Source of the DNA: Raillietiella orientalis
Lineage: Eukaryota
Reading direction: 5' to 3'
NCBI GenBank assembly: GCA_036172245.1
Contig: JAYWIR010000033.1
Coordinates: 186,001 to 250,000, forward strand
DNA: 64,000 bases
In this document: piece after piece, positions 4,501 to 52,993 of the stretch
Position numbering within the stretch: the stretch's first letter is position 1
Layout: each line of letters begins with the position of its first letter
Position numbers and translations under genes: made by a program
Notes under the pieces: model-generated
The model's database searches: none
The model's input: only the letters and a program-made list of their open reading frames with translations
What the model was told of the DNA's origin: nothing

Positions 4501-5087
4501 CAGTTAACAGACGCTGCGACCCCGAGTACGCCTCATAATGGACTTCTGCGCTGGGGTGCGCTGCTCGATGTTCCCATTGAACATTTGAAGTGGCCCCCGG
4601 TGCTCATGAACACTTCCGCCCTCCTTTCAAAATGGCAGAAGTCAATTCTCCTGTTGCAGCTCTGGGACTTTCCTGCAACGCCCGCCGACACCACTGGACC
4701 TGGGGAGCGGTGTACCCTAATTGCGTCAGGTGTGGGGAACGGGAGTCCCTCCCCCACCTGCTAGTGGATTGTGTTGCCCTTCGGCCCCTTTGGTTTCGCT
4801 TTGCCGCGGCCATCGGTATCCCCTGCGGCAACCCCAGGAAGGCACTGAAAGCCCTCTTCGTTGCCGACGCCCTTCGGCTAGCGGCCTCGTTAGCAGCTTT
4901 GTGCTGCCTACGCGGGATCGTCACCGCTTGGAGCAAGGCTACGGGAGGACAACGCGACCAGGGTGCCATCCAGCCAGCCTCCCAGTTCCTGAGGAGGGCG
5001 TCCCGATGGCCCCACTTGGATCCAGGAATACAGAAGGAGCATGCCGGCATCCTGCAAAGGATGCAACGGCCCCACCAGCAACTGTGA
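1508..5087 (+). pseudogene. ORF2 APE endonuclease/reverse transcriptase, disrupted by stops and frameshifts
   Basis: WNMNG, LLQE, NVYAP, AGDFN, SDH; KAFD, RQGDSLSPLLF, YVDD; CVRCGERESLPHLLVDC. Confidence 0.95.
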
Positions 5088-5304
5088 TCCCTTCCCTTAC
5101 CCTCCCAACTTTTCTTTTCTTTTTTGTTTTGTTTTTTGTATTCCCCCCTTCCCCCTGCTGCTGTGGTGGACCGTACCGGTCTGCGAACCGGTGATTCGGC
5201 AGGCTCTGTGTTTCTTCGTGCGTGACTGGAGCAATGGTCCAGCCACCGCACGTTTTTGTAAAAGTTTATTTTCCAATAAACGCCCGGCGAAATCCGGGTG
5301 AAAA

Positions 5305-6556
5305 CCGAACGCCCTGTGGAAATCGACTGCGAGCGCTAGGGCCCCCTTCCCCGCCCGGGGGTCACTTCTCAGTCCGGCTGGCGGCCCCAATGTGGGGTTG
5401 CCGACTTTCCCTATCCCTTTCTTTTCTCTTCTCTGCAGGTGCACCCATGTGCTTGCGAAGAAGCGGTTGCCATCCATACTTCGCCCGGGAACAGCATAAG
5501 TCTGCTCCGGGCTAATTAGGGATTCTGCCACCTGCCCCAGACGCGAAGTCCATAGCCGTGCTATTAACTTGGCGTCCGAATTCACAATCGTGATCGGAGG
5601 CCAGTTCTTTAAATTCCTGACGTCTCCTTCTTTCGGAAGGAGCCTCACTCTGGCTGACCGAAACTAGGCGGGAACATCGCCTTCGCCTCGGATCAGCCTG
5701 ATCAACTTATGCAGCAGGGGTGCCAGCTCTTCCGCGAAGCTCTGAAAGAACTCTACGGGCAAGCCGTCTTCCCCTGGAGCCTTACGCCTCTTGAGTTTTT
5801 TGATACTGGCGAGAACTTCGCCGGTGGTAAAAGGCTTGTAGAGGCTTTCCATCTCCTCCTCCCCTATTGCCGGGGCGCCATCCGGAAGCAAGCGTCGAGA
5901 AACGTTCCGATCCGGGGGCTCCCTAACGTAAAGAGAGGAATAAAAACTTCGCACGAGATGCCGTACCGACGCCGGGAACGAACATTCCCTGCCCTGGGCG
6001 TGCAGCAAGCTGGCCGACCCGGATTGCCAGGCTTGGCGTTCGGCCCCGGCGCTGTACTCGCCCAGGCGACGAACATTAGGGGTTCTTTCGTACCTACGAG
6101 CCTGTAAATAGGCCCGATGGTTGCAAGGACCCTCGTTGAATCCGGAAGGCAGGCGGTCCAGGGGGAACTGCTCACAGAACTCGCGGACGGATTCTTTAAA
6201 AAGGTCCCAGTCCTGGAGATTCCGGAGCGTGACGCCTCTCAGGTATTCGCGAAGGTGTTTCTTCGCACCTGGGAGTCGCGTCCAGTCCTCCGGCAGACGC
6301 CAATCCTAGGATGGCGGTCCTTTGTCTCGAGGCAGCAACTCGAAAATTAACTGGGAATATCCCGACAACGTCGACGCAACCCTCCCCCGTTTGCCGACCC
6401 GTGAACACAGGTCAGCGTCGAGAAAGACGTGGTAGATGCTGCGGACCCTTCCCCTCTCACCCGCGAACAAGATGCGAGCACGCATGGCGGCGCACAACTC
6501 GTTCTTCGCGTTCTCTTGTGTTTCTGGCTCACCTGATAGCAGACGGAGATTGAAAT
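5305..6556 (-). mobile_element. Family T copy 1, downstream part of ORF2 (from APE GDFN to RT AF[D/G])
   Basis: FNLRLLSGEPE, KAPGEDGLP, PEQTYAVPGR, AVDFHRAF; continues exactly from 19876-22213. Confidence 0.9.
6533..6556 (-). repeat. Target-site duplication, downstream copy (partner 19876-19896)
   Basis: Minus strand ATTTCAATCTCCGTCTGCTATCAG versus ATTTCAATCTCCG---GCTATCAG. Confidence 0.85.
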
Positions 6557-9500
6557 TTATCACCCGGTCACGCCGGGGCGTTTATTAATAATAATAAACT
6601 GGTCAGGGACAATGTCCTCAACCAACAGGACGACAGAAAACATAGAAAAATTACCGGCACGCAGGCCTGGTAAACAAACCGCTCGCAGCGTGGGGGAATG
6701 AGGGGAAACAAACAAAAATCAAAAACTGGAGGGAAGGGAAAAGGGTTTTTGGTAAGGCTCCGTACTCACGGGGATTTAAACGATGAGCACCTCGAATGTC
6801 TTGGAGCCTATCGGGACGCGGGTGTAAAAAGAAAATACAAAATTAGTTTATGGAGGGTAGGGCAATGATCACCGGGTTGGCCGCTGATGAGGGTGTGTAA
6901 ACCGGCGGTGTATTGCGGCGAGATTCCTCTTTGTCTCCTCTGTCAAATGAGGCCATCTAGCGGATGCTCCCATGTAGAAGGATGCTTTGCTGATTACCTC
7001 TTGGTGCTGTCCGTTGATTACCAACGCCTGGCGTACGGAAACTATCGCGCGTATGCAACCGATGGTTGCAATCCTTGCGCTTAGTGACAGCCCGCTCGGC
7101 GTGAAGAATCGTCGCAGCAAGTCTCTTGCGGTGTCCACGGGATGCATTAGTGCTGTTGCCAGCCTACGCCACAGTCCTCGTAGGACACCGCAGTCCAGAA
7201 GTAGGTGCGGAATCGACTCCGTCGATCTGCACCGAACGCAGTTCGCAGACGCAAGTCCCCCGGAGTCACGATGCCAACGCACGTTGCACTGAAAACCCCA
7301 GTGAACGAAAAGCAGCACACTTGTTTCCAAGCAAGGAAAAGCAGCGAACTGTCCATACACTGTGAAGGGACTACAAGTTCTTCGGGGGTGACAGCAAGTT
7401 CTTCTGCCCACCGGAGGAGTCCCTTTGCAGTAACACGAGGAGTGGCAACGTCCGCCAACTCACTCGTCTTCCAGGCGCCAAGGATTTTGGTTTTTCCCGC
7501 TATCGTGCAGGAAACCTCCCACCTCGGCGGTTGGTAACTGTCGTTTCTTGCCCTGAGGGCAGACAGCGCTGCGGCAAGAGGCGTGGCAGCCAGGGTAGAA
7601 AACTTCACCTCGTCCTGCAGTACCTCTTTCAAGGATCGTGGAAAAAATTGACGCAGGGGGCGAAGATCTTCAGGGCGTATTCCTTGGAACGCCGCCCAGG
7701 ATTCAACAGACTCCTGCCGCCAAGCTTCAAAGTTCATTGGGAGGCAGGAGATCCACGAGTGAGCTTCCAGAAGTGCGGTCAACTGCCGCAATGGAAACCC
7801 GAAACCCCGCTTCCTGTATTGAGTGCCCGGCAAAAGCGAGAGAAATTCTCCGCTGCCGGCGCATCTCCGCAGGAGAATGCGGGCTGGCACACACAGGGGG
7901 GATGTCCATAGCTGGGCACACAGTGCCAGCAGTCGGAACTGCACCTGCAGTCCGATTCGCTCCATTGTCAAGATACCCAAACCAGCATCCCGACGCGGAG
8001 CTAACAAATCTTTAAGGCGGATCCTGGATCTCGCCGGACCCCAGAGAGCGTTCCTGAGCAGGCGTTTAGCCCGCTGTTTTGCCGCATAGGGGGGGTCCAA
8101 AACAAAAAACAGGGGACGGAGGAGGGGGGCCACAAAGGTGTTCCAAATAGTCGCCCGTTCCTGCAAGGTAAACTTGCCGTTAAAGAACGGGTTGATGGCC
8201 AACTCTGCTTTCTGAAGGCAGTCCGCCCACGCTTCGGCTGTGCCGAAAGCGTCCAACGGAACACCAAGTTACTTAAAGTACCCGCCCGTGGCGATCCCCA
8301 GGCGGATCCAGTCGGACTGCCCCTCCCACGACGTACCCACAGGAACGACCACGCTCTTCTCTATATTCACGTTCATGCCCGCTCCCCGACGAATCAGGTC
8401 GAAGAAATCCTCGACACTGGACGCCGGGGTGGACATGGGGGGCAGAAGAAGCAGGTCATCAGCGTAGGCGGCCACGGCAGGCGTTCCCGGGCAGGAGCTT
8501 GGCAAGTGAGACAGCGTCAGCCTGTATGCTCTTAGCACCAACTCAAAGAAGATGCTGAAGAGCAACGGGCTTAAGCTGTCGCCCTGTCGGATGCCCCTAC
8601 GAACGGGAATACCATACACGCGGCAGCCGCTGAAAGTCATGCAGGTTAGCGCGTGGCGCCAGCACGCGCGCAAATACAGCAGGAGTTGCGCCGGGAACCC
8701 AAGGCGTTCCATAAGCTCCAAAAGCAGCTTCTGGTTTACGCAGTCGAACGCCTTGTGGAGATCGACCGCGACCGCCAGGGCACCTGGCGTTCCCTCCTGC
8801 CGTCGGCGCCTGTTCTTCTTGCCTGCGGCAGTGACTTTCGCAGCAGCCTGGCTTTGCTGCGCCACAACTTCCTGCAGCTGCATCCATGTACGCGCGAAAA
8901 GGATGTTCGCCTCCATGGATCGTCCCGGAACCGCGTAGGTTTGTTCCGGGCTCACCACAGATTCCGCGATACTTCCTAGCCGCGGGACCCACAGCTTGGA
9001 AAACAACTTGACGTCCGAGTTCTCCAAGGTGATCGGACGCCAGTTGTTAAGTTGGCGCAAGTCTCCGCCCTTCGGCAGGAGACGCACCTTCGCTGAGCGG
9101 AAGGAATCCGGGACATTCCCGGATTCCCTCATCCCGGATTCACTCATCAGCGTCGCGAGTTTCAGCATCAAGGGAATGAGCTCCACTGCAAAGCACTGAT
9201 AAAACTCTGCAGGGGGCCCATCCTCGCCTGGCGCCTCTCGTCTCTTCAGCCCAGCGATTGCGGACGAAAATTCATCCACCGTGAAGGGCTCGTCGAGACG
9301 TTCGCCTTCCCTATTCGCCGACAACACGAGCATCCTGAGACAGAAGTATCTCAGAAAGAATATCCTCCGTCGGGGATTCCGCGTACAGCGAGGATAAGTA
9401 GGGTCTCACAATGCGGCGTACTTCGGCTGGGGCCGAACATTTCTGGCCCTTGTCGTGCAACAGCCATGCTGCTTGGACTGCCAGACCTGGCGCTCGGACC

Positions 9501-12410
9501 TCGCCTTGTACTCTGCGAGACGCCCGACATCTGCGCGTCTCGAAAACGTGCGGGCCTGCAGAAAGTCTCTACTGTTGGCCACGCCCTCTCCGAAACCGCG
9601 TGGAAGCCGGTGAAAGGGGAATTGGCAGCAGAACTCGCGGACAGATCTTTTGAGATCGTCCCAGTCCGCAAGTTCTTGAATGGGAAAGCCTCGGAGGTAT
9701 ATACGTAGATGCTTCGCAGCATCCGGTTGGCTAAGCCAATCCGCCTGCATCCTCCAGTTTTGGAACGGAGGCCCCTGCCTGGCGGAAGGATCTCAAACTC
9801 CAACCTGTGGTGGTCAGAAAGCCTAGTCAACAATCTTCCTCTCCAACCCACACGCGAATGCAGGTTTATATCGAGGAAAACGTGATCGAGCGATCTTTCC
9901 ATTCCAGGTTCGCTGACCATCAAGTTGGCGGCGTGCGCGGACGCGCACATCTCGATAAGCAGCGCGCGTTCCCTCGGGGGGCTCCAATCGTCGGAGAGCA
10001 GGCGGACGTTGAAGTCCCCAGCGACGAGGTGCGCCACTTGGAAACCGGAGTTGTTGAGCCAGTGGCTCTGCACCTCACCAAAGAAAGCTACTCTTTCTTC
10101 GAGGTAGCGAGAGCCACTCGGCGCGTAGACGTTCGTAACGACGAGATCGATGGACTCGGACCACTTGATGACAAGCTGGCCTATCCGTCCGTTGTCATCG
10201 AAACGAACACAACGCACCGCTTCCGCCATTTTTCCTCTTACGAGGAACGCGACGCCGCACGTGTGTGCGCCGCCGCACCGCCAATGTAGCGTTCCGCCTG
10301 CGCGCTCCTCGATTTCGGCTGCCTGCTCGTCGGAGATTACGTGAATCTCCTGCAGGAGCGCGAGGTCGAAGGGGCGCAGGGCGTTGGCTACCAATCGGCT
10401 CTTCTCGTCATTCTGTATTCCGTTCACGTTTCAACACGTTACGGACAGACGACAAGAAGACGCGATTCCCGCATTACTGCTGGGAAGGTGGCGGCTTTTT
10501 GCTCGCTTTATCCGGCGAGCAGACGGCGAGCAGCACGACTGGCTGGACCCCGTCGGGTTTCGTGGAGACTTCGCGTTGCTTCGTGGCGAGCGTTGCCTGG
10601 CTGCCTACTTTTGATCGGCGCGCACACGCTTTCGAGCGAGTTGTCCTCGTCTCGGTGATCGGAACGGCATCCATTTCGGAGTCCGACCGGCGCATGTTCG
10701 ATCGGGTTTCGGCCTTCCGCGAAGTAGTGACAGGTTCTGCTGGATTGACAGCTGTCCTGTTGTCATTTTCCGTCACAAGGGCATCGCTTTTGGTGACGGC
10801 TGCTTTCCCGGCGCGCGCGTTCTCAGCGTGCTCACGCGCAGTTGCACGAGGGACCTTTGCTGAAGTCTTCTTTACTTCATTACGGTTCCTCACTTCGCGT
10901 GGCGCCGTAAATGGAGATTCTGCTCCATTGCCATCTTTGAAGCCATCCGCGTCTTTGGACGGGAGCACTTTGGATGGCTTCGACACGCTCGTCATGGACG
11001 CTGCCTCCGGAAGGGCTTTCAATCCCTTCGTTGGCATGGCATCCGCGCCAGTCGAGAGCTTGCTCTCCGACTGCGACGGCGTGAGATTTTCCTCCGCTTT
11101 CGCAGTGTTCGATCGCGACGCGGATTTTTTTTTGCCGACTTTCGAAGTCGACACGACACAACCCTTCTTACCCGATTTGGGCTTATCAGACACTGCAGGA
11201 GGTGAAGGAATGGATCTGACGGTACTGGAAGTGTCCTTACCGCCGTTGTCCATTGACGTCCCCGCCGGCTGCTCGAACTCCGAAAGAGCCGGGCGTGCTT
11301 GGTTAGGACAGCTATTGCGCCTATGGGGACTTACCATTGCCCCGGATTCCCCGCACCCTTTCTTTTGCGGCTCCCCTGCCGCGAGAGGGGGCGCGCAGGG
11401 CTTCGCTTGCGAGGTTTCCTGCTGCTTTGGGGCGACATTCCGCCTCGCGTATTTCGGAATTTCTGCCGTGGGGTCTCCAGATTTTCCGCAGATTTTTTCT
11501 TTTTATCCGCGCTTTGTTTCTTAAGATGAAGCTCCGCGGCTGCCTTTTTTCGCAAAAGATCCGAGCATTTTTTCAATTGGTGCCCGGATAGTTTGCAATA
11601 ACGGCAATTTCCAGAGGAGCATTTATCCAAATAATGCCCCTTCTTCCCGCATTGCTCGCACGTTCTTACTTTGCCCACGAACCACAGGTGAACGACCGTG
11701 TCTTTCACCTGTAGTTTCGTGGGCAGCAGAAGGCGGTCCGGCATTGTAAGCCGGACTCCAGCGACTCCGCTATGTATGGACGGGAAGTCCTTGAGGTTGC
11801 TACGCATCCTCCACAGCGCATGGACCGTGGCGAATTTCGCGAACGCGTTCCGAATGTCAATATCGGAGATTTCCGACTCGATGTCGAAAATCTCCGCCAC
11901 AAATGAGTCGTCCATGGCGGCCGGGAAGACCTTCTGGCCACGGATCGACAACGGGGTGCGCAGCAAGCGTTGCACAAGTGCAGCGTCTTTGCAACGCACC
12001 TTCAAGTACCTCATGTCTTTTACGGGCATAATGGCGAGAAGGTCCTCCTCCCGCACGCCAACACGGGTCAGTTCATCGTTGAACTGATTCCCGTCGCGCG
12101 CAGAAAGAAAACCACTCACCTTATATCGGAGAGCAGGTCTATTGCCTTGGGCTACGTATGCCCGCAACTCCGACTCGTCGAGTGGTTTCCCTTTGACGGC
12201 TGCTGTGGCAGCAACGTCAGCAAAACTCCTCTCCATTGGCGACAAAGACGAAGTAAAGGCGGCCGTCGGTTCCGCGATTGCAGATCCGGATGCTGTTCCT
12301 CCAACTTCAGTAGCTTCAAGTTGGGTCGATAACGTCGTCAAAATGTACGACGCCAAGATCAAGCGGATGAAAGCACGGAGACAAGAGCGAAGAAAAACAC
12401 GTCCGCACTC
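6557..12410 (-). mobile_element. Family G copy A, full-length, frameshifted
   Basis: 5' GAGTGCGGACGTG at 12410; ORF1 about 12333-10474; ORF2 10474-6869 in fragments with YADD and CVRCRSTESIPHLLLDC; 3' hairpin 6557-6586. Confidence 0.95.
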
Positions 12411-12732
12411 GATTGAAATTTATCACCCGGTCACGCCGGGGCGTTTATTAATAATAATAAACTGGTCAGGGACAATGTCCCCAACCAAGAGAACGACAGA
12501 GAACATAGAAAAATTACCGGCACGCAGGCCAGGTAAACAAACCGCTCGCAGCGTAAGGGGAATGAGGGGAAACAAACAAAAATCAAAAACTGGAGGGAAG
12601 GGTAACGGGTTTTTGGTTAGGCTCCGTACTCACGGGGATTTATACGATGAGCACCTAAAATGTTCCGGAGCCTATGGGGACGCGGGTGTAAAAAGAAAAT
12701 ACAAATTTAGTTTATGGAGTGTAGGGCAATGA

Positions 12733-15700
12733 TCACCGGGTTGGCCGCTGATGAGGGTGTGTAAACCGGCGGTGTATTGCGGCGAGATTCCTCTTTGTCT
12801 CCTCTGTCAAATGAGGCCATCTAGCGGATGCTCCCATGTAGAAGGATGCTTTGCTGATTACCTCTTGGTGCTGTCCGTTGATTACCAACGCCTGGCGGAC
12901 GGAAACTATCGCGCGTATGCAACCGATGGTTGCAATCCTTGCGCTTAGTGAAAGCCAGCTCGGCGTGAAGAATCGTCGCAGCAAGTCTCTTGTGGTGTCC
13001 ACAAGATGCAATAGTGCTGTTACCAGCCTACGCCACAGTCCTTGTAGGACACCGCAGTCCAGAAGTAGGTGCGGAATCGACTCCGTCGATCCGCACCGAA
13101 CGCAGTTCGCAGACGCAAGTCCCCCGGAGTCACGATGACAACGCTCGTTGCACTGAAAACCCCAGTGAACGAAAAGCAGCACGGCTTGTTTCCAAGCAAG
13201 GGGGAGCAGCGAACTGTCCATACACTGTGGAGAGACTACAAGTTCTTCGGGGGTGACAGCAAGTTCTTCTGCCCACCGGAGGAGTCCCTTTGCAGTAACA
13301 CGAGGAGTGGCGGCGTCCGCCAACTCACTTGTCTTCCAGGTGCCAAGGAGTTTGGTTCTTCCCGCTATCGTGCAGGAAACCTCCCACCTCGCCGGTTGGT
13401 AACTGTCGTTTCTTGCCCTGAGGGCAGACAGCGCTGCGGCAAGGGGCGTGGCAGCCAGGATAGAAAACTTCACCTCGTCCTGCAGTACTTCTTCCAAGGA
13501 TCGTGGAAAAAATTGGCGCAGGGGGCGAAGATCTTCAGGGCGTATTCCTTGGAACGCCGCCCAGGATTCAACAGACTCCTGCCGCCAAGCTTCAAAGTTC
13601 ATTGGGCGGCAGGAGATCCAAGAGTGTGCTTCCAGAAGTGCGGTCAACTGCCGCAATGGAAACCCGAAACCCCGCTTCCTGTATTGAGGGCCCGGCAAAA
13701 GCGAGAGAAATCCTCCGCTGCCGGCGCATCTCCGCAGGAGAATGCGAGCTGGCACACACAGGGGGGATGTCCATAGCTGGGCACAAAGTGCCAGCAGTCG
13801 GAACTGCACCTGCAGTCCGATTCGCTCCATTGTCAGGATACCCAAACCAGCATCCCGACGCGGAGCTGACAAATCTTTAAGGCGGATCCTGGATCTCGCC
13901 GGACCCCAGAGAGCGTTCCTCAGCAGGCGCTTAGCCCGCTGTTTTGCCGCATAGGGGGGGTCCAAAACAAAAAACAGGGGACGGAGGAGGGGGGCCACAA
14001 AGGTGTTCCAAATAGTCGCCCGTTCCTGCAAGGTAAACTTGCCGTTAAAGAACGGGCTGATGGCCAACTCTGCTTTCTGAAGACAGTCCGCTCACGCTTC
14101 GGCTGCGCCGAAAGCGCCCAACGGAACGCCAAGGTACTTAAAGTACCCGCCCGTGGGGATCCCCAGGCGGATCCAGTCGGACTGCCCCTCCCACGACGTA
14201 CCCACAGGAACGACCACGCTCTTCTCTCTGTTCACGCTCACGCCCGCTCCCCGACGAATCAGGTCGAAGAAATCCTCGACACTAGACGCCGGGGTGGACA
14301 TAAGGAGCAGAAGAAGCAGGTCATCAGCGTAGGCGGCCACGGCAGGCGTTCCCGGGCAGGAGCTTGGCAAGTGAGACAGCATCAGCCTGTATGCTCTTAG
14401 CACCAACTCAAAGAAGATGCTGAAGAGCAACGGGCTTAAGCTGTCGCCCTGTCGCATGCCCCTACGAACGGAAATACCATACACGCGGCAGCCGCTAAAA
14501 GTGATGCAGGTTAGCGCGTGGCGCCAGCACGCGCGCAAATACAGCAGGAGTTGCGCCGGGAACCCAAGGCGTTCCATAAGCTCCAAAAGCAGCTTCTGGT
14601 TTACGCAGTCGAACGCCTTGTGGAGATCGACCGCGACCTCCAAGGCACCTGGCGTTCGCTCCTGCCGTCGGCGCCTGTTCTTTTTGCCTGCGGCAGTGAC
14701 TTTCGCAGCAGCCTGGCTTTGCTGCGCCACAACTTCCTGCAGCTGCATCCATGTACGCGCGAAAAGGATGTTCGCCTCCATGGATCGTCCCGGAACCGCG
14801 TAGGTTTGTTCCGGGCTCACCACAGATTCCGCGATTCTTCCTAGCCGCGCGACCCACAGCTTGGAAAACAACTTGACGTCCGAGTTCACCAAGGTGATCG
14901 GACACCAGTTGTTAAGTTGGCGCAAGTCTCCGCCTTTCGGCAGGAGAGGCACCTTCGCTGAGCGGAAGGAATCAGGGACATTCCCGGATTCACTCATCAG
15001 CGTCGCGAGTTTAAGCATCAAGGGAATGAGCTCCACTGCAAAGCACTGATAAAAGTCTGCAGGGAGCCCATCCTCGCCTGGCGCCTTTCGTCTCTTCAGC
15101 CCAGCAATGGCGGACGAAAATTCATCCGCCGTGAAGGGCTCGTCGAGACGTTCGCGTTCCTCCTCGCCGACAACACGAGCATCCTGAGACAGGAGTATCT
15201 CAGAAAGAATATCCTCCGTCGGGGATTCCTCGTAGAGCGAGGAGTAGTAGCGTCTCACAATGCGGCGTACTTCGGCTGGGGCCGAACATTCCTGGCCCTT
15301 GTCGTCCAACAGGCATGCTGCTCCGGTCTGCCAGACCTGGCGCTCGGCCCTCGCCTTGTACTCTGCGAGACGCCCGACATTTGCGCGTCTCGAAAACGTG
15401 CGGGCCTGCAGAAAGTCTCTACTGTTGGCCACGCCATCTCCGAAACCGCGTGGAAGCCGGTGAAAGGGGAATTGGCAACAGAACTCGCGGACAGATCTTT
15501 TGAGATCGTCCCAGTCCGCAAGTTCTTGAATGGCAAAGCCCCGGAGGTATCCACGTAGATGCTCCGCAGCCTCCGGTTGGCTAAGCCAATCCGCCTGCAT
15601 CCTCCAGCTTTGCAACGGAGGCCCCCTGCCTGGCGGAAGGATCTCAAACTCCAACCTGTGGTGGTCAGAAAGCTCAGTCAACAATCTTCCTCTCCTACCC

Positions 15701-16326
15701 ACACGCGAATGCAGGTTTTCATCGAGTAAAACGTGATCGAGCGATCTTTCCATTCCAGGTTCGCTGACCATCAAGTTGGCGGCGTGCACGGACCCGCACA
15801 TCTCGATGGGCAGCGCGCGCTCTCTCGGGCGGCTCCAATCGTCGGAGAGCAGGCGGACGTTGAAGTCCCCAGCGACGAGGTGCGCCACTTGGAAGCCGGA
15901 GTTGTCGAACCACTGGCTCTGCACCTCACCAAAGAAAGCTTCTGTTTCTTCGAGGTAGCGAGAGCCACTCGGCGCGTAGACGTTCGTAACGACGAGATCG
16001 ATGGACTCGGACCACTTGATGACAAGCTGGCCTATCCGTCCGTTGTCATCGAAACGAACACTACGCACCGCTTCCGCCATTTTTCCTCTTACGTGGAAGG
16101 CGACGCCGCACGTGTGTGCGCCGCCGCACCGCCAATGTAGCGTTCCGCCTGCGCGCTCCTCGATTACGGCTGCCTGCTCGTCGGAGATTACGTGAATCTC
16201 CTGCAGCAGCGCGAGGTCGAAGGGGCGCAGGGCGTTGGCTACTAATCGCCTCTTTTCGTCGTTCTGCAGTCCGTTCACGTTCCAACACGTTACGGACAGA
16301 CGACGAGAAGACGCGATTCCTTGCAT
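12733..16326 (-). pseudogene. ORF2p of copy B (APE, RT, CCHC; about 1197 aa) with one in-frame TGA at 14092-14094
   Basis: ORFs 14092-16326 and 12733-14067 share a frame; paralogues have TGG (AEAW) at the stop. Confidence 0.95.
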
Positions 16327-18248
16327 TACTGCTGGGAAGGTGGCAGCTTTTTGCTCGCTTTATCCGGCGAGCAGACGGCGAGCAGCACGACTGGCTGGAG
16401 GGGACGGTCGCCACCGTCCTCTGTCGTGCTGCATGCATGTAATGCCTCCACGCCAGGCGGAACCCCGTCGGGTTTCGTGGAGACTTCGCGTTGCTTCGTG
16501 GCGAGCGTTGCCTGGCTGCCTACTTTTGATCGGCGCGCACACGCTTTCGATCGAGTTGTCCTCGTCTCGGTGATCGGAACGGCATCCTTTTCGGAGTCCG
16601 ACCGGCGCATGTTCGATCGGGTTTCGGCAATCCGCGAAGCAGTGACAGGTTCTGCTGGATTGACAGCTGTCCTGTTTTCGTTTTCCGTCACCAGAGCATC
16701 GCTTTTGGTGACGGCTGCTTTCCCGGCGCGCGCGTTTTCAGCGTGCTCACGCGCAGTTGCACGAGGGACCTTTGCTGAAGTCTTCTTTACGTCATTACGG
16801 TTCCTCACTTCGCGTGGCGCCGTAAATGGAGATTGTGCTCCATGGCCATCTTTGAAGCCATCCGCGTCTTTGGACGGGAGCACTTTCGATGGCTCCGACA
16901 CGCTCGTCATGGACGCTGCTTTCGGAAGGGCTTTTAATCCCTTCGTTGGCATGTCATCCGCGCCAGTCGAGAGCTTGCTCTCCGACTGCGACGGCGTGAG
17001 ATTTTTCTCCGCTTTCGCGGTGTTGGATCGCGACGCGGATTTTTTTTTTCCGACTTTCGAAGTCGACACGGCACAACCCTTCTTACCCGATTTGGGCTTC
17101 TCAGCCAGTGCAGGAGGTGAAGGGATGGATCTGACGGTACTGGAAGTGTCCTTACCGCCGTTGTCCATTGGCGTCCCCGCCGGTTGCTCGAACTCCGAAA
17201 AAGCCGGGCGTGCTTGGGAAGGACAGCTATTGCGCCTAGGGGGACTTACCATTGCCCCGGATTCCCCGCACCGTTTCTTTTGCGGCTCCCCTGCCGCGAG
17301 AGGGGGTGCGCAGGGCTTCGCGTGCGAGGTTTCCTGCTGCTTTGGGGCGACATTCCGCCTCGCGTTTTTACCGAATTTCTGCCGTGGGTTCTCCAGGTTT
17401 TTCGCAGATTTTTTCTTTTTATCCGCGCTTTGTTTTTTAAAATGGAGCTCCGCGGCTGCCTTTTTTCGCAAAAGATCCGGGCAATTTTTTAATTGGTGCC
17501 CGGATAGTTTGCAATAACGGCATTTTCCAGAGGGGCATTTATCCAAACAATGCCCCTCCTTCCCGCATTGCTCGCACGTTTTTACTTTGCCCACCAACCA
17601 CAGGTGAACGACCGTGTCTTTCACCTGTAGTTTGGTGGGCAGCAGACGGCGGTCCGGCATTGTAAGCCGGACTCCAGCGACTCCGCTGTGTATGGACGGG
17701 AAGTCCTTGAGGTTGCTACTCACCCTCCACAGCGCATGGACCGTGGCGAATTTCGCCAACGCGTTCCGAATATCAGTATCGGAGATTTCCGACTCGATGT
17801 CGAAAATCTCCACCACAAATGAGTCGTCCATGGCGGCCGGGAAGACCTTCTGGCCACGGATCGACAACGGGGTGCGCAGCAAGCGTTGCACAAGTGCAGC
17901 GTCTTTGCAACGCACCTTCAAATAGCCCATGTCTTTTACGGGCATAATGGCGAGAAGGTCCTCCTCCCGCACGCCAACACGGGTCAGTTCATCGTTGAAC
18001 TGATTCCCGTCGCGCGCAGAAAGAAAGCCACTCACCTTATATCGGAGAGCAGGTCTATAGCCTTGGGCTACGTATGCCCGCAACTCCGACCCGTCGAGTG
18101 GTTTCCCTTTGACGGCTGCTGTGGCAGCAACGTCAGCAAAACTCCTCTCCATCGGCGAGAAAGACGAAGTGGAGGCGGCCGTCGGTTCCGCGATTGCAGA
18201 TCCGGATGCTGTTCCTTTAACTTCAGTAGCTTCAAGTTGGGTCGACAT
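16326..18248 (-). CDS. ORF1p of copy B (RRM-like domain, two CCHC knuckles, long basic low-complexity tail)
   Basis: Uninterrupted ORF from MSTQLEATEV; CEQCGKEGHCLDKC and CRYCKLSGHQLKNC. Confidence 0.9.
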   Translation of the reverse strand: MSTQLEATEVKGTASGSAIAEPTAASTSSFSPMERSFADVAATAAVKGKPLDGSELRAYVAQGYRPALRYKVSGFLSARDGNQFNDELTRVGVREEDLLAIMPVKDMGYLKVRCKDAALVQRLLRTPLSIRGQKVFPAAMDDSFVVEIFDIESEISDTDIRNALAKFATVHALWRVSSNLKDFPSIHSGVAGVRLTMPDRRLLPTKLQVKDTVVHLWLVGKVKTCEQCGKEGHCLDKCPSGKCRYCKLSGHQLKNCPDLLRKKAAAELHFKKQSADKKKKSAKNLENPRQKFGKNARRNVAPKQQETSHAKPCAPPLAAGEPQKKRCGESGAMVSPPRRNSCPSQARPAFSEFEQPAGTPMDNGGKDTSSTVRSIPSPPALAEKPKSGKKGCAVSTSKVGKKKSASRSNTAKAEKNLTPSQSESKLSTGADDMPTKGLKALPKAASMTSVSEPSKVLPSKDADGFKDGHGAQSPFTAPREVRNRNDVKKTSAKVPRATAREHAENARAGKAAVTKSDALVTENENRTAVNPAEPVTASRIAETRSNMRRSDSEKDAVPITETRTTRSKACARRSKVGSQATLATKQREVSTKPDGVPPGVEALHACSTTEDGGDRPLQPVVLLAVCSPDKASKKLPPSQQ

Positions 18249-18334
18249 CGTCGTCAAAATGTACGACGCCAAGATGAAGCGGATGAAAGCACGGAGACGA
18301 GAGCGAAGAAAACACGTCCGCACTCGATTGAAAT

Positions 18335-19875
18335 TTATCACCCGGTCACGCCGGGGCGTTTTTTAATAATAATAAACTGGTCAGGGACAATGTCCCCAAC
18401 CAACAGAACGACAGAGAACATAGAAAAATTACCGCCACGCAGGCCTGGTAAACAAACCGCTCGCAGCGTGGGGGGAATGAGGGGAAACAAACAAAAATCA
18501 AAAACTGGAGGGAAGGGAACAGGGTTTTTGGTTAGGCTCCGTACTCACGGGGATTTAAACGATGAGCACCTCAAATGTTCCGGAGCCTATGGGGACGCGG
18601 GTGTAAAAAGAAAATACAAATTTAGTTTATGGAGGGTAGGGCAATGATCACCGGGTTGGCCGCTGATGAGGGTGTGTAAACCGGCGGTGTATTGCGGCGA
18701 GATTCCTCTTTGTCTCCTCTGTCAATTGAGGCCATCTAGCGGATGCTCCCATGTAGAAGGATGCTTTGCTGATTACCTCTTCGTGCTGTCCGTTGAGTAC
18801 CAACGCCTGGCGGACGGAAACTATCGCGCGCATGCAACCGATGGTTGCAATCCTTGCGCTTAGTGAAAGCCCGCTCGGCGTGAAGAATCGTCGCAGCAAG
18901 TCTCTTGCGGTGTCCACGGGATGCAATAGTGCTGTTGCCAGCCTACGCCACAGTCCTTGTAGGACACCGCAGTCCAGAAGTAGGTGCGTAATCGACTCCG
19001 TCGATCCGCACCGAACGCAGTTCGCAGACGCAAGTCCCCCAGAGTCACGATGCCAACGCTCGTTGCACTGAAAACCCCAGTGAACGAAGAGCAGCACGGC
19101 TTGTTTCCAAGCAAGGGGGAGCAGCGCACTGTCAACACACTGTGGAGGGACTACAAGTTCTTCGGAGGTGACAGCAAATTCTTCTGCCCACCGGAGGACT
19201 CCCTTTGAAGTACAACGAGGATTTGCGGCGTCCGCCAAATCACTTGTCTTCCAGGCGCCAAGGAGTTTTGTTTTCCCCGCTATCGTGCAGGAAACCTCCC
19301 ACCTTGCCGGTTGGCAGCTGTCGTGTCTTGCCCTGAAAGCAGACAGCGCTGCGGCGAGAGGCGTGGCAGCCAGGGTAGAAAACTTCACCTCGTCCTGCAG
19401 TACTTCTTCCAAGGATCGTGGAAAAAATTGGCGCAGGGGGCGAAGATCTTCAGGACGTATTCCTTGCAACGCCGCCCAGGATTCAACAGACTCCTGCCGC
19501 CAAGCTTCAAAGTTCATTATGCGGCAGGAGATCCAAGAGTGTGCTTCCAGAAGTGCGGTCAACTGCCGTAATGGAAAACCGAAACCCCGCTTCCTATATT
19601 GAGTGCCCGGCAAAAGCGAGAGAAATCCTCCGCTGCCGGCGCATCTCCGCAGGAGAATGCGAGCTGGCACACACAGGGGGGATGTCCATAGCTGGGCACA
19701 CAGTGCCAGCAGTCGGACCTGCACCTGCAGTCCGATTCGCTCCATTGTCAGGATACCCAAACCAGCATCCCGACGCGGAGCTGACAAATCTTTAAGGCGG
19801 ATCCTGGATCTCGCCGGAATCGAGCAGAGAGCGTTTTTGAGCAGCGCCAGCCCGCTGTTTTGCCGCATAGGGGTT
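18335..19875 (-). mobile_element. Family G copy C, 5'-truncated
   Basis: ORF2 C-terminus 18648-19868 and 3' UTR near-identical to copies A and B. Confidence 0.95.
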
Positions 19876-22213
19876 CTGATAGCCGGAGATTGAAATCTCC
19901 CGCTATCAGGTGAGCCTTCCGCACGTTCGTGTCCGCCAGCCAGTCGCGCTTCAGGGATTCCAGCAGCCTGGTGCGGTCGCTGTATCCCTGTTTACCGCTG
20001 GGGGCGTACACATTCGTGACGATCAGTTCGATCGAGTCGGACCAGCTGAGAATCAGCTAACCGTCCCGACCGTCGTCAGCGAAGCGCACGCCCTTCACGG
20101 CCGCGTCGATGGCCGGCTTCACGAAGAACGCGACCCCGCAGGTGTTGCGGAGGCCGCACCGCCAATACAACCGACCCCTTGCGATCGTCTCGATTTCCTG
20201 GGCGTCTGTCGTGGTGATCACGTGGATCTCCTGCAGCAGGGCCAGGTCGAGCTCACGCAGGGTGTCGGCCGTATCTCGCCTGTTACCGTCGTCGCGCAGC
20301 TTGTTCACGTTCCAAGGGGCGGCGCGAATCCGACGGCGACTGGCGAGCCCAGGTGTCAGTCCTGGGAAAACGACGATGCGGCGTCCGCCACCTGCTGGGG
20401 CGGGACGCTAGGTGGAGGAGGAGGGTCAGGCGCTGCGTGCACCTGGTCCCCCTCCTCCATGGGTATCGGCGCGTCGAGCGGGTCACCCTAAGGTGGGGTC
20501 GCGCCTACCTGTTGGCCCTCCTCCATGGGGGCGGGCTGTTCAGGCTCGGCGACTGCAGGTAGCACTTCGCCCCCCTGCTCACCCTCCTTTATGGGGGTGG
20601 CCGGCTCGACGGCTTCCGAGCGTGGGAGTTCCCCCTCCGGGATTCCCACGCTACCGCTAACTTCCTGTTTCTCCTCCTCGCTGGTGGAGGGGAGGCGCCT
20701 CCTTGGTTTCTGGGACTTGCGTCCCGACTTCCTAGGGGGTGCCTCCGAGGAGGAAGATGCACTTCCGGCCCTTAAATCCGACTCACCTATGGGGGCCTTT
20801 TTCGCGGGAGCCGGCCTTCGCACGGCCTTGCGTGAGGGGTTCTCACGCTCCGCCAGCGTGGCCGCGAGCTCCTCCGCCGCCTTTGCGAACGCGGCGTCCT
20901 CGGTGTCGACCGGCGCGTCGCGCGGCTCACCCTCTGTTTGCACTGAGGGTTCGCCGTCGCGAACTTCGGGTGCGACGGAAACGGCGAGGGGAGGCTCGTC
21001 GCCCCGGGTGGCATCTTCCGGAACGCCGATACGTTCCAGTGCCCCCGTGCACTTGCGTACGGTTTTCGAACGCGGCCCGGGTTTTTTTGCCTTACCGGCC
21101 GGCTTCTCTTTCTTCTCCCTTAAAGGAGCTTTTCTCTCTTTTCTAGCTGCTACAAGTTGCCAGCCTTCTTCACCTTTCGCCTCTTGGCAAGGTTTATCCT
21201 CCGCTTGCTTTTGTTTGCAAGTCTTTTCTTTTGGAGGTTGAGGATCTGGCAGCTTCAGCCGGCCAGCGTCCGCCTTAGGTCTTGTGACCTTTAGTGCGCG
21301 TTTCCCCTGCGCCTTTTTCGCGGCAGGAGGAACCGGGGTGGGGCGTTTTGGGCACACACGTCGAACGTGGCTCTTCTCCCCGCACATGTGGTATTGGATG
21401 CTAGGATACCTCTTGGGATGGTGTCCTACGGTATCGCAGTAGCCGCAATCCCAGGGCTTTCCCACGTACCAGAGGTCCACGCTCTCTTGCGCAACCTCCA
21501 GCTTGTGAAGAAGCCCACAGTCCTTACTCACGGTTACCCGCGCTGCAGCCTGGCCTCCGAAATGGCTATTGAAGCCTTTAAAGATTGTTGGCTTAGGCCA
21601 CAGCGCGTGCACCTCACCGAGCTTCTGTAGTTCTTGTGCTACCGCAGAGCGTGTCATACGGCTCGTTATTCCAGTGAGATGGACCACCACGGAGCGGTGC
21701 ATCGTCACCGGCAAGATCTTGCGGCCGTCGACGTTCAGCGGGTTCGTGATCAGAGTTTGAGCCAAAGTGATCTCCTTGCACACCACCTCGACTCGCTGAC
21801 CTCCGCTGAGAACGGACAAACCGTCAAGATCTTGTTCTCTTACTCCAGCGTTTTGCAGCGCTTTCGGAAACGCGCGTGCCGTTTTTCCATCAAATAGGGG
21901 CCTACCTGTTACACCAAGCTGGGCTTGTACCCAGCTGCCCGGTAGGCCGCCATCTCGGCCACGGTTTCCGCGCTCGGCGCGGCCACCATTTCGCTCCAGC
22001 TCCTCGCCTTGGGCGGCGAGGGCGATTACGGGGCGGATGCCCCTGATTCTGTAGGCTGTGGGGGTGGGCAAGCCTTCCTCATACCTACCTCCATCGTGGT
22101 GTCCTCAGGCATTGCTGCCATCGGACACCAACGATGTTCCACACGAACACACAGAAAGAAAAAAACCGCTTCCTGTCGACTCACTCGGGAGCGAAGGAAA
22201 AATACGTCCACTC
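19876..22213 (-). mobile_element. Family T copy 1, upstream part (5' UTR, ORF1 22121-20356, APE N-terminus)
   Basis: 5' GAGTGGACGT at 22213; SEAPPRKSGRKSQK ORF1 signature; LLQEIHV, YAPSG, IAGDFNLR. Confidence 0.92.
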
Positions 22214-25141
22214 GCCAAGGGATTTGGAGACGGGTTACGTAACCAACGAGCCTATCTGCAGGCTCGCCGTTACGCCAGGACCCCCGACATCCGCAGGCTG
22301 CCGGAATACAAAGCAGGAGCTGAGAGGCAAGCCTGGCAGTCAGGATCGGCCAGCTTGCTGGACGATCAGGGCCAGGAGCATTCGGCACCCGCTCAGATCC
22401 GCGGTCTGCTGCGGCGTTTTTACTCCTCCCTGTACGCAAGAACGCCTTTCGAGCGGGATTTGCCACAAATCCAGCTTCCGGAAGGCGCTACTGCGATCAA
22501 GAAAGAGGAGAAAAAGTCCCTTGACGAGTCTTTTACGATGTGCAAGATCATCTCGGCCATCGGAAAGCTCAAGAAACAAAAGGTTCCAGGGGAGGACGGC
22601 CTGTCCGCGGAGTTCTATCAAACCTTCGCGGCTGAGCTAACCCCTCTGGTACATCAACTCACCTTGCTGATACGCAAGACCGGTGACGTTCCCGCCTTTT
22701 TTCGTTCGACAAAGGTGCAGCTTCTTTCTAAGGGAGGAGATCTGAGGAGCATAAACAACTGGCGTCCCATCACAAAAGTGAATGCGGACGCCAAGTTGGT
22801 GACTAAGGTTTGGGCAGAGCGTCTGGGACGGGTTGCAAACGCCTTCATCATCCGGAACAGACGTATGCTGTTCGGGGCGAAGCATGGAGGCGAACCTGTT
22901 CCACGCTTCCACCTGGCAAGAGCTCCAACACGAAAGGGGCTTGATGCGCACCGGGAATTCCGGTGAGTCCGTCAGTCATGCGACGGATGGTCGGATGGGG
23001 GAGGGAGCACTTGCGGTCGCTGTCGACTTGCGTAAAGCATTCGACAGCGTCGACGAGAATCTCCTGCTGAAGCTTTTGGAACGCTCGGGCATCCCGGCCT
23101 CATTATTGGCCTATCTGCGCTCTAGCTGGCGCGATTCGCAAATCAATGTAACTTTCAGCGGGCATACATTTCACGGCGTGCCGATGCGACGTGGGATCCT
23201 GCAAGGAGACAGCCTGAGACCCTTGCTCTTGAGTACCTACTTTGAGTTGGTACTGAGAGCGTACACGGAAACTCTGGCGCACTTGCCGCATGAATGCGCC
23301 GAAACGTTTGCGGTTTCATCATATGCGGACGACCTCCTGCTACTGCTCCCTATGTCCACCCCGCCTTCGGCGGTCGAGAAGTTCTTCGACCTGCTGAATC
23401 GAGGAACCGGGCTTACGGTGAACAGGGCGAAGTCGTCCGTGATGCCAGTTGGTGCGGCGCGGGCAATGCAGCAGGACTGGGTCCGTTTGGGGATCCCCAC
23501 GGTAAGGTACTTCAAGTTCCTTGGTGTGCCGTTGGGGGACTACTCCCCTGCGGAAGCGTGGTCCGGCTGCCTTCAAAAAGTAGAGACGGCTATCGGCCCG
23601 TTTGGAGGCGGCAGGTTTTTCCTTCCTGAACGGGCCGCGGTTTGGAACATGTTTGCGGCTTCTCTCCTCCGTTCCCCGCTTTTTGTTTGCCCCCCCACAG
23701 AAAGGATCAAAAAGCGGACGAAGGACCTTCTCCGTATCGCCCTTTAAGCCAACGGGAGGGCCCGAGTCCGCTTAAAGGACTTGTGCGTTCCTCGTTGGAA
23801 TGGTGGTCTGGGCCTCCTTACATTGGAGCGGCTGGAGCTGCAGCTCCAGTTCTGGATTTTGGCACTTGTGCCGGAGTTGTGGTGCACCTGTTGGTGCGTT
23901 TCTGCACGTCTCCTCCTTCAGCAAGCCACCGGCAAGACGGGACTTACGTCGTTTCTTGCGCTCCATCGAAACCGCATCAACCGATGTGAGCTTCAGCTAC
24001 GGAGGGTGGCTGCGCTGGCAAGGAAAAATCAAGGATGGATCACCTGTCTATCTGCGAACGGTAGTGCCTGGTTGCAGGAAACCGTTCGCACGTGGGGACA
24101 GTTCGGCATGCAAAGCTCATATCAGGAACGAAGCTTCCTGTTCGGGTGTTACAGAAGTTGCACGCTCCGTGAGATCCTGTAGGATCCTAAGAAGAGAGCG
24201 TGGTCAGGAAGAACCCCCCTCCGCTGCTGCGCTGGACTCCCTAGTAGAACATTGGGACAGCGATGTTGCGGCGAAGTGGGAGGTTAGGATAAAAATCTCC
24301 GGGAAGGAGAAGAAGCAGAGAGAGTGGAAGACGGGCCAGCTAACTGATGCTGCGTCCCCAAGTACGCCTCCTAATGGACTTGTGCGCTGGGGAGCGCTGC
24401 TGGATGTTTCCATTGAACATCTGAAGTGGCCTCCAAATCTTATCAACACTTCCATTATCCCTCTTAAATGGCAAGAGTCGGCATTCCTGTTGCAGCACTG
24501 AGGACTCCCCTGCAACGCACGTCGACACCACTGGACCTGGGGAGCGGTGGATCCCAATTGTGTGAGGTGCGGGGAACGGGAGTCCCTCCCCCACCTCCTA
24601 GTGGATTGTGTTGCCCTTCGGCCCCTTTGTTTCCGCTTTGCCGCGGCCATCGGTATCCCTTGCGGCAATCTCAGGGACGCACTAAAAGCCTTCTTTGTTG
24701 CCGACGCCCTGCGGCCAGCGTCCTCGATAGCAGCCTTGTGCTGCCTTCGTGGGATCGTCGCCGCCTGGTGCACGGCGACGGGAGGACCTAGCGATATGGA
24801 CGCCATCCAGTGCGCCTTCCAATTCCTGAGGAGGGCGTCGCGATGGCCCCACCTGGATGTTTATAACAAACAAGAGCTTGTCAGCATCCTGAGAAGGATG
24901 ATGCGGCCCCAGAAGCATCAGTGATCCCTTCCCGTTCCCTCCCACCCTTTGTTTTTTTTTGTTTAGTTTTTTTGTTTTTCCCCTTTCCCCTGCTGCCTTG
25001 GTGGACCGTACCGGTCTAGAAACCGGTGAATTAGCAGGCTCCGTGGTTCTTAGCTTCTGGCTGGAGCATTGCCACAGCCATTAATAATTACTTTATAAAG
25101 TTTATTTTTTAATAAAAGACCCGGAGAAATCCGGGTGAAAA
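22214..25141 (+). mobile_element. Family F copy b, 3' part (ORF2 from GFGDG to the end), pseudogenised
   Basis: Colinear with 2390-5304; YADD; zinc finger; ends AATAAA AGACCCGG AGAAAT CCGGGTG AAAA. Confidence 0.95.
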
Positions 25142-25711
25142 TCGAAAGCTTCACGCAAATCGACTGCGACCGCAAGGGCTCCAGGCGATGCATCTTCTTC
25201 CCGGCTTCCCTCCCCCCTATCAGTGGAGAGTCCAGGACTTTCCCGACGTAGCTTCGCCTCGCGTTGTTGCAACTGCCAGAATGTGCTGGCGAGGAACAGG
25301 TTGGCCTCCATGGTTCGTCCAAGAACAGCGTATGTCTGTTCCGGACTGATAACGGAGTCCGCTACCCGTGCCAAGCACTCAGCTCACAGTTTGGCGAGCA
25401 ACTTTGCGTCCGCATTCACTACAGTGATGGGACGCCAGTTTCCAACGTTGCGCAAGTCTCCTCCCTTAGGAAGGAGACGTACTCTAGCTGACCGGAACGA
25501 GTTGGGGACATCCCCACGTTTACGGATCAGCATACACAGTTTTAGCACCAGGGGGGCCAGCTCTGCCGCGAAGTATTGGTAGAATTCAGCTGGCAGGCCG
25601 TCTTACCCTGATGCTTTGTTTTTTTTCAATTTAGTGATAGCGGAGATTATCTCCGCCATCGTGAATTCTCGGAGGAAGAAGCTTATCTCTTCCTCCCTCA
25701 ACGAGGGAGCC
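25142..25711 (-). mobile_element. Q-like ORF2 fragment (RT N-terminus up to AFD)
   Basis: NWRPITVVNADAKLL, PEQTYAV, AVAVDLREAFD; resembles 45520-46050. Confidence 0.85.
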
Positions 25712-32891: not shown

Positions 32892-33018
32892 TTGCCACCC
32901 GGGTACGCCTGGTACGTTTATTGATCACAATTCTCAATAAATCGTGGTATAAGGCCCAACTGCGGCCTTAAACACGGAACCTGTCGGCACAGCGGAGCGG
33001 AGCCCGGCAGGGCACCTC
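32892..33018 (-). mobile_element. Family T 3'-terminal stub (about 125 bp)
   Basis: Matches 28022-28150. Confidence 0.85.
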
Positions 33019-33173
33019 TGCTGCTTCAGTTGATGAGGCTGATCGGAGACGAGAGCGATGTTCCCGCCTCCTTTCGGTCAGCCAGGGTGAGGGTCCTTAA
33101 GAAAGGGTGAGACCACAGGGATCAAGGAACAGGCGTCCGATCACGATTGTGAATACGGACGCCGAGTTGCTAG
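33019..33173 (+). mobile_element. Short RT N-terminal fragment
   Basis: DVPASFRSARVR, RPITIVNTDAELL. Confidence 0.75.
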
Positions 33174-33250
33174 TTGCCATCCGGTCACGCCGGGTAGTTT
33201 ATTATAAATTCTCTACAATTCGTGGTACGAGGCCCCACTGCAACCAACTC
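33174..33250 (-). mobile_element. Family K 3'-terminal stub (about 75 bp)
   Basis: Matches 36120-36195. Confidence 0.8.
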
Positions 33251-52505: not shown

Positions 52506-52975
52506 ACTTCGGCTGCAGCCGAGCATTGCTGGCCAACCTCATCGAGCAGACAAGCCGCAGCCCTTGCAGCCTCGTGCTGCGTCCGAGGCATCGTTGCGGC
52601 ATGGAGCGACACCAACAAGGAAAGAGTGGGTCAACACGCGAGGGATGTCATCCCATATGCCCAACGCTTTTTGCGGAGAGCTGCTAAATGGCCCCAACTG
52701 GGGAATCTACGGATGGACCTCGAGGGCTTCCTTCAACGGATGGGCCGTCCTCTCAGCGAACAGTGATCCCTTCATTGCCCCCCAACCTCACTTGTTTGTT
52801 TGCCTATTTGTTTTTATTTTTGTTTTTCCCCATCCCCTTTCGCTGCCGGGGAGTGCCACGCCGGGCTGCGTCCCGGCGTCCCGGTAGGTACCGTGCATAA
52901 GGACGTGAGCGGGGCCAGGTACCGCAATTGTAGAGTTTTTTATAAATGAACGCCCCGAGCGTACCCGGGTGATAA
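52506..52975 (+). mobile_element. Family T copy 5, short 5'-truncated copy
   Basis: CCVRGIVAAWSD-coding end and 3' UTR match 28022-28440; ends GCGTACCCGGGTGATAA. Confidence 0.88.
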
Positions 52976-52993
52976 CTCCGAATCCCCGCTGTG

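Follow-up and report, generated by a model that had tools for sequence, protein, structure and literature searches.

The 64,000-nt stretch of Raillietiella orientalis DNA considered here (GenBank assembly GCA_036172245.1, contig JAYWIR010000033.1, positions 186,001 to 250,000 of the forward strand; hereafter the window, in whose coordinates all positions are given) is in its entirety a dense nest of retrotransposons lacking long terminal repeats (LTRs), with a G+C content of 53-63%. Two copies of one family in this nest, family F, end at the same base of a catalytic codon in the second open reading frame (ORF2) of other elements of the nest. Mapping by tblastn with T2, the element in the best state of preservation (ORF1 of 678 amino acids (aa); ORF2 of 1208 aa with one stop), as query places 22 fragments derived from long interspersed nuclear elements (LINEs) on both strands, from 30 to 63943.

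Pfam domains Exo_endo_phos, the apurinic/apyrimidinic endonuclease (APE), and RVT_1, the reverse transcriptase (RT), are found in many frames of the window; a single 755-aa frame holds both (5e-11 and 2.6e-18, respectively), and CCHC knuckles are present in an ORF1 translation. The top PDB relative by phmmer is human LINE-1 ORF2p (2e-42), with R2 proteins at 6e-15 or weaker, an ordering by similarity and not a phylogeny. Judged by domain order and this PDB ranking, the window elements are APE-type non-LTR retrotransposons (LINEs) of an L1-like kind. A word-index protein search with ORF2 returned relatives at 23-29% identity only; an exhaustive protein search yielded a single relative at 60%, together with short ones at 60-68%. 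No relative was found in a scan of viral contigs with the T2 ORF2.

The marks of target-primed insertion are present, i.e. 5' truncation (in T3, K, U, W, V and O, among others), lack of LTRs, and a target-site duplication of 21/24 nt around the tandem array described below. The poly(A) tail of mammalian and plant L1-type elements is absent, as all 14 of the 3' ends stop at 2-4 A, which follow the box CCGGG-T-G-NN-AA. An AATAAA lies about 20-26 nt upstream of every 3' end (e.g. 5275-5304, 6557-6586), and long poly(A) tracts occur nowhere in the nest. Full-length copies of diverged families have a common 5' terminus, about GAGTGCGGACGTGTTTTTCC, seen at 12391-12410, 18306-18325, 22196-22213, 30391-30405, 39020-39034, 52994-53013 and 59358-59375; its conservation suggests a defined transcription start or an internal promoter.

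The left part of the nest contains both F copies of interest. F1 (1..5304, plus strand) comprises part of ORF1, a decayed ORF2 with APE and RT (tblastn; Pfam Exo_endo_phos and RVT_1) and a 3' untranslated region (UTR), its 5' end being left of the window. It abuts its host, R1 (5305..6556, minus strand), which represents ORF2 aa ~165-583 of a G/P/I-like LINE and resumes beyond the T-array with the right-hand duplication copy ATTTCAATCTCCGTCTGCTATCAG. The T-array (6557..19875, minus strand) stands in sense at the APE G-D-F-N codons of this element and consists of T1 (12410-6557) and T2 (18325-12420), both full length, and the 5'-truncated T3 (19875-18335). On its far side lies G (19876..22213, minus strand), the 5' part of the same element as R1 (5' UTR, ORF1 and ORF2 aa 3-170), which ends with the left-hand duplication copy ATTTCAATCTCCGGCTATCAG and whose complete 5' end (GAGTGGACGT..) adjoins F2. 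F2 (22214..25141, plus strand) begins at 22214 with GCCAAGGGATTTGGAG, directly against the 5' end of G, and runs from ORF2 aa ~300 to its 3' terminus; because G interrupts it at a site in the G-F-G linker, the 5' part of F2 itself must be located to the left of the window. The host of F2, R2 (25142..25695, minus strand), is ORF2 aa ~399-584 of an N/O-like LINE. Nesting could thus be reconstructed for G/R1, F2 and the T-array, in a self-targeting cluster that is nearly all LINE.

F junctions at RT motif A

The plus strand reads ...CCCGGCGAAATCCGGGTGAAAA|CCGAACGC at the end of F1 (5304/5305) and ...CCCGGAGAAATCCGGGTGAAAA|TCGAAAGC at the end of F2 (25141/25142). The two copies share the 3' terminus CCCGG-N-GAAATCCGGGTGAAAA, F-family 3' ends being characterised by the tail CCGGGTGAAAA behind CCCGG-N6; in F1 the terminus, at 5275-5304, is composed of AATAAA, CCCGG-N6-CCGGG and TGAAAA. 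The 22-nt F terminus CCCGGNGAAATCCGGGTGAAAA occurs twice in the window, once at each junction, against 0.00 occurrences expected from 100 shuffles. Minus-strand translations of the flanks end in ..LALAVDFHRAFG| to the right of F1 and ..LAVAVDLREAFD| to the right of F2, reading ..AVDFHRAFG| in R1 and ..AVDLREAFD| in R2. The interrupted sequence is RT motif A, and the break follows the second base of its Asp codon: R1 is cut after GCG TTC GG (A-F-G, formerly D; 5305) and R2 after GCT TTC GA (A-F-D; 25142). Both hosts stop in column 1784 of a 16-sequence ORF2 nucleotide alignment, in agreement with the original prediction that both F copies join the antisense of GCN TTC GR at the same base. LINE insertion loses 5' sequence, not 3' sequence. 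As the junction is the true 3' terminus of F and an internal ORF2 point of R1 and R2, F is the insert and R1 and R2 are the hosts.

Eleven RT motif-A sites are present in the window; nine are intact and two, in the hosts of F1 and F2, are interrupted. In the orientation of F, the target reads GTCGACGCA(G/A)|TCGAANGC. The bare 8-mer GCNTTCGR has 39 matches in the window against 29.5 expected, and 39 or more were reached in 7 of 100 shuffles. Since the word is not rare, the significance of the junctions lies in their homologous position and orientation and not in the word itself. By our own arithmetic, the chance of a second strike on the same base and strand is about 1 in 12,000, if insertion, in either orientation, is uniform along an element about 5.9 kb long.

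Additional information on the junctions was sought outside the window. Metagenomes scanned for the 22-nt F terminus yielded seven loci, all in unrelated bacterial coding DNA, and an ORF spanning the F1/R1 junction had no protein match among 209 candidates. A search of sequencing runs returned a single run (X1, share 0.12), whose contigs match window positions 1-6600 in 270 short pieces of 85-99% likeness that carry no usable junction information; one 357-nt contig of this run ends within 4 nt of 5305/5306 and is taken as a break in the repeat graph only.

Independence of the two F insertions

A shared junction could have been inherited, a single ancestral F-in-host composite having been segmentally duplicated within the cluster. 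One blastn alignment does cross the junction (2398-5776 against 22231-25610, 81.9%), and duplicated structures are abundant in the cluster. Such a duplication would leave equal divergence on both sides of the junction, whereas F1 and F2 are 84.8% identical over their last 2900 nt (2453/2891) and R1 and R2 only 68.9% identical over their first 450 nt (302/438; Fisher p = 2e-14). Nor are the hosts each other's nearest relatives. In a maximum-likelihood tree of the aa 399-584 region R1 groups with Y (100/100), and R2 falls in an unresolved group with N and O. R1 is closest to I (82%) and Y (77%), R2 to O (79%) and N (76%), and all four of these relatives are uninterrupted at the A-F-D site.

The nesting order bears on the same point. 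G and R1 carry both copies of the duplication around the T-array and are therefore one element; they are 85% and 91% identical to P, respectively. F1 is nested in G/R1, and G/R1 in turn interrupts F2. The order of events is thus R2, F2, G/R1, and then F1 and the T-array. Judged by the unequal divergence of inserts and hosts, the different host clades and this order, the two F insertions are independent, and the inherited composite, already disfavoured, is extremely unlikely. The recipients had been assigned to different families, and the events read as independent strikes on a catalytic RT motif, in the original prediction; the tree, the identities and the nesting all concur with it.

Structure of the T-array

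With the T-array removed, G and R1 rejoin with a duplication, ATTTCAATCTCCGG(CT)ATCAG / ATTTCAATCTCCGTCTGCTATCAG, of 21/24 nt. Each T unit ends in the tail GTGATAA, and 9 nt (ATTTCAATC) stand between units, at 18334-18326 and 12419-12411; these are the first 9 nt of the G-D-F-N target. T3, T2 and T1 lie head to tail, and aligned 300-nt copies of the repeat are at least 90% identical. The array could have arisen by repeated insertion at a regenerated site, by template jumping, or from read-through RNAs carrying the 9 nt of target. Elsewhere, at 52964-53006 on the plus strand, an 18-nt antisense copy of the G-F-G site separates the 3' tail of V from the full 5' end of P, with which it is directly contiguous. 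This arrangement looks like re-insertion into the duplication copy of an earlier insertion, one route to same-strand tandem arrays.

The rejoining of G and R1 also bears on whether the junctions of the nest are insertions at all, since recombination, template switching or misassembly between LINE copies would produce chimeras. Simple nesting does not account for some joints, among them U|K (33248/33249) and F3|Q (near 59358-59364), at which two 5' ends meet head to head, and the contigs from the one related short-read run are in fragments, as might be expected were such chimeras present. Set against this are the duplication itself and the complete canonical F 3' terminus at both F junctions. 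Misassembly would fuse repeats that are nearly identical and would not twice join, at one exact base, copies that are 69% alike, and a host fragment antisense to F would not be expected from switching between RNA templates. A chimeric origin of the junctions is accordingly very unlikely.

Four family-specific landing sites

A profile of the 3' box, built from 13 3' ends, recovered those 13 and one new end, that of V. Of the resulting 14, 11 fall in four family-specific sites within the window, with a fixed orientation in each family; the singletons are the 3' ends of F3, N and O. The sites can be grouped by host motif.

The first, the A-F-D site of RT motif A, is entered in antisense by F1 and F2 (2 of 14 ends). 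The second lies at the codons for G-D-F-N in the endonuclease and is entered in sense by T1, K, T2 and T3 (4 of 14). T1 and K (33249-35144, plus strand, T-like), both with the tail GTGATAA, are inserted before ATTTCAA of these codons, T1 in the P-like host R1 and K in L (35145-36119, plus strand), an F-like host 86.5% identical to F1; T2 and T3 are each followed by the 9-nt ATTTCAATC and then by the 5' end of the next T unit. The second landing site lies inside the Asp codon of G-D-F-N, as the first lies inside the catalytic Asp codon of motif A.

The third site, RT motif 1 (..D-A/V-x-L-L), is entered in antisense by Y (36120-39019, minus strand) in host L and by U (33174-33248, minus strand) in host S (33011-33173, plus strand); the sequence that follows both is CTAGCAACTYGRCGTCCG. 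The fourth, in the G-F-G linker (aa ~303), is entered in antisense by I, W and V, directly after GG-N-TT-Y-GG-N-G and with tails GTGGCAA or GTGATAA. Here H (27115 to 28021, plus strand) is cut after ..GGTCAGGCG by the 3' end of I (28022-30386, minus strand, tail GTGGCAA), and J (30391-32891, plus strand) is cut after ..GGATTTGGTG by W (32892 to about 33010, minus strand). H and J end in the same column, 927, of the 16-sequence alignment. V (about 52546-52975, plus strand) is I-like and is followed by the 18-nt antisense G-F-G copy at 52976-52993.

For every pair of insertions at a site, the best match of each host is another element that is intact at that site, and never the partner host. In the I/W pair the inserts are 75.4% and the hosts 59.5% identical (p = 2e-3).

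Several 5' junctions also agree with the four-site picture. The overlap with the G-F-G nick is 16-18 nt at both G|F2 and P|18 nt. At J|I, where I starts at RT motif 1 beside the 5' end of J, the overlap is with the motif-1 nick and amounts to about 13 nt. X|Y, where Y resumes beside the 5' end of X (39020), lies about 20 nt beyond the G-F-G site. J is probably a motif-1 inserter, and G, P and X are probably G-F-G inserters. Twin priming (5' inversion) was considered for the head-to-head joins G|F2 and X|Y and rejected, as G extends, by way of R1, to aa 583 and the recurrent G-F-G site is the place of the join.

Nucleotide conservation in 20-nt windows places the A-F-D site at the 97th percentile, G-D-F-N at the 57th, motif 1 at the 58th and G-F-G at the 22nd. 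Location at conservation peaks was thus rejected as a general rule. Targeting of the most conserved motif holds for F only, the other three sites being average in conservation.

Target specificity and a possible mechanism

Taken together, these data indicate that F is probably a site-specific L1-like (APE and RT) non-LTR retrotransposon that targets the RT motif A DNA of other LINEs by sequence-specific, target-primed reverse transcription. It would belong to a guild that comprises at least four LINE lineages, each with its own fixed ORF2 site and orientation. Under the mechanism proposed here, the F protein would nick the host coding strand inside the Asp codon (5'-GCN TTC GA^Y TGC GT-3'), and the freed 3'-OH would prime reverse transcription at the short A-tail of F RNA (..AAUAAA-CCCGG-N6-CCGGG-UGAAAA). 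Priming on the host coding strand would leave F antisense to its host, and for antisense inserters in general the first nick would likewise be on the coding strand of the host. A second-strand cut about 13-24 bp away would then produce a target-site duplication; the direct support for this staggered second cut is the duplication at the T-array.

In each family specificity is probably encoded in the protein. A guide function of the RNA was rejected: words common to the F 3' UTR and its target have a maximum length of 6-10 nt, against 10-13 in shuffles. The tails (GTG-NN-AA) and boxes are common to families with different targets. The lack of guide-like complementarity and the sharing of tails across targets point to the protein as the source of specificity.

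F3 is the member of the clade that behaves otherwise. It groups with F1 and F2 in the tree (100/99), is 76% identical to F1 and has the tail GTTTCAA. It lies at 55707-59364 (minus strand) and its antisense 3' end cuts P (52994-55706, plus strand, with a full 5' end) at ORF2 aa ~280, abutting ..CGGAATCTCCA|, a site in ORF2 different from that of F1 and F2. Either target specificity varies within the F clade, therefore, or it is not absolute, and a recent change of target by F3 is possible. The original prediction would have been undermined by F copies at unrelated flanks, a condition that F3, at another ORF2 position, touches in part.

Further points besides F3 weigh against site-specific targeting by F and the guild. 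There are just two F junctions, both in one window, and the F 5' junctions and duplication are unseen, being left of it; no F copy outside the window turned up in the metagenome, sequencing-run, viral-contig and protein searches. The nick contexts on the primed strand (A^C, T^C, G^C and G^A) share nothing obvious. The inserts Y and U are 78.7% identical and their hosts 78.3%, i.e. no different, and the difference for T1 and K is slight (70.0% against 66.0%, p = 0.04); with identities so nearly equal, the argument for independence of these two pairs is the nearest-neighbour one. None of the five pairs of a candidate 3' hairpin covaries, and the hairpin was dropped as a proven structure and treated as a conserved box only. 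The joins U|K and F3|Q and the stretch X-M-N-O misfit simple nesting.

Some of these points would suit a weak preference, e.g. for a short word such as TCGAA or for DNA shape, acting in LINE-rich DNA, with the two strikes on one base being fortuitous or reflecting a mild hot spot. The 8-mer is frequent in the window (39 matches, where 29.5 are expected), F3, a clade member, sits elsewhere, and the sample is two. Exact coincidence is, however, also seen in three other families, so that 11 of 14 3' ends fall at four sites including that of F, and orientation is fixed in each family. The 97th-percentile conservation of the A-F-D site is what would be expected of a recognised sequence that persists across diverged hosts. 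A weak preference is therefore unlikely, and site-specific insertion by F is preferred.

Comparison with known LINEs and implications

The closest analogues are the Zepp-type nested LINE clusters and the Tx1-type LINEs that target transposons. Zepp of Chlorella/Coccomyxa and ZeppL-1_cRei of Chlamydomonas form self-targeting nested clusters of L1-clade LINEs (PMC8226300, PMC3446292, PMC9940879, PMC11005252, 10.1101/2025.03.28.645958), the nested Zepp-type clusters occurring one per chromosome (PMC3446292). Common to these and the window are LINE-only islands made by LINEs inserting into LINE copies, nested as well as tandem arrangement, and frequent 5' truncation, a likeness of cluster architecture. 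Zepp and L1-1_CR end in (A)n (PMC3472496), whereas the window elements end in 2-4 A after a conserved box. The window differs further in holding several diverged families, each with a base-exact ORF2 site and orientation.

Tx1-clade elements include Tx1L, which inserts into Tx1D piggyBac, Tx1-Mar, which inserts into Mariner-N4_AMi, and others that enter LTR retrotransposons or Harbinger; their specificity is attributed to the endonuclease (PMC4494074). The likeness is one of insertion behaviour: in both cases APE-type LINEs occupy a fixed position and orientation inside another transposon family. The same source, by Kojima, regards a LINE as target-specific when more than 20% of its flanks are the same. 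In the small numbers of this one window the corresponding counts are 2/2 for F (GTGAAAA-type terminus), or 2/3 with F3, 4/4 for the T type, 2/2 for Y/U and 3/3 for I/W/V. Tx1 targets are DNA transposons, LTR elements, small nuclear RNA genes and microsatellites, not coding motifs of fellow LINEs, while the targets in the window are the guild's own protein-coding motifs, among them the catalytic Asp codon of RT motif A. In literature searches and in the available parts of the Zepp/ZeppL and Tx1 literature, which do not extend to the original Zepp papers and supplements, no account was found of several LINE families with base-exact sites in the coding motifs of fellow LINEs, and an earlier description is possible.

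A third comparison is with the LINEs of ribosomal DNA (rDNA), which share these window elements' use of one exact nick site in a conserved multicopy sequence and of a defined 3' end. The rDNA elements R1 and R2 (names to be kept apart from the host fragments above) each use one exact nick site in conserved multicopy rDNA, target-primed reverse transcription and a 3' end recognised by the RT, and they form tandem or re-inserted copies at one site. Protein-encoded specificity is accepted for R1, TRAS/SART and Tx1-type elements. The specificity of the R1Bm endonuclease has been treated separately (PMC1919474). R2 differs in having a restriction-like endonuclease, the window elements having APE, and the target of R1 and R2 is a host gene, that of the window elements other selfish elements.

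More tentatively, and at somewhat less than even weight, at least four co-resident LINE lineages may have split LINE ORF2 DNA among themselves into separate, heritable, base-exact sites. Each insertion would then provide a safe harbour and at the same time disable a rival, the insertions together making a self-propagating LINE-only island, possibly of centromere type as proposed for Zepp, with endonuclease specificity evolving within the F clade (F1/F2 against F3). The idea is thereby raised that transposon families compete by inserting into the codons of each other's catalytic motifs. Self-targeting of this kind would also offer a base-level mechanism for the growth of LINE-only islands, e.g. 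the Zepp-type candidate centromeres of green algae. Site-specific LINEs are natural models for programmable, RNA-templated gene insertion, and to our knowledge few distinct APE-type specificities have been described. The window, with four related enzymes at four exact sites and a close relative, F3, at a fifth, could serve as a compact natural set of variants with which to identify the residues of an L1-like endonuclease that determine target choice.

Other joins and elements in the window

At 33248/33249 the 5' ends of U (minus strand) and K (plus strand) meet head to head, both 5'-truncated. At 59357-59364 F3 (minus strand, from aa ~62) meets Q (plus strand) in the same manner, the Q side having a near-complete 5' end. 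Neither fits simple nesting, and these head-to-head joins may represent two primed complementary DNAs joined at a break, or a deletion. Between 41371 and 48230 there is a run of plus-strand elements in which X is cut at aa ~196, M is cut in ORF1, N is full length and O is 5'-truncated. The tails of N and O are followed by short unassigned spacers, of 56 nt and about 40 nt, respectively, and the 40 nt behind O resemble the antisense of the ORF2 stretch just beyond the G-F-G site. At the right end of the window (61184-63943, minus strand) lies a far more distant LINE, with 26% aa identity to the T2 ORF2 and an RVT_1 match of 2.5e-28, which stands outside the guild described here.

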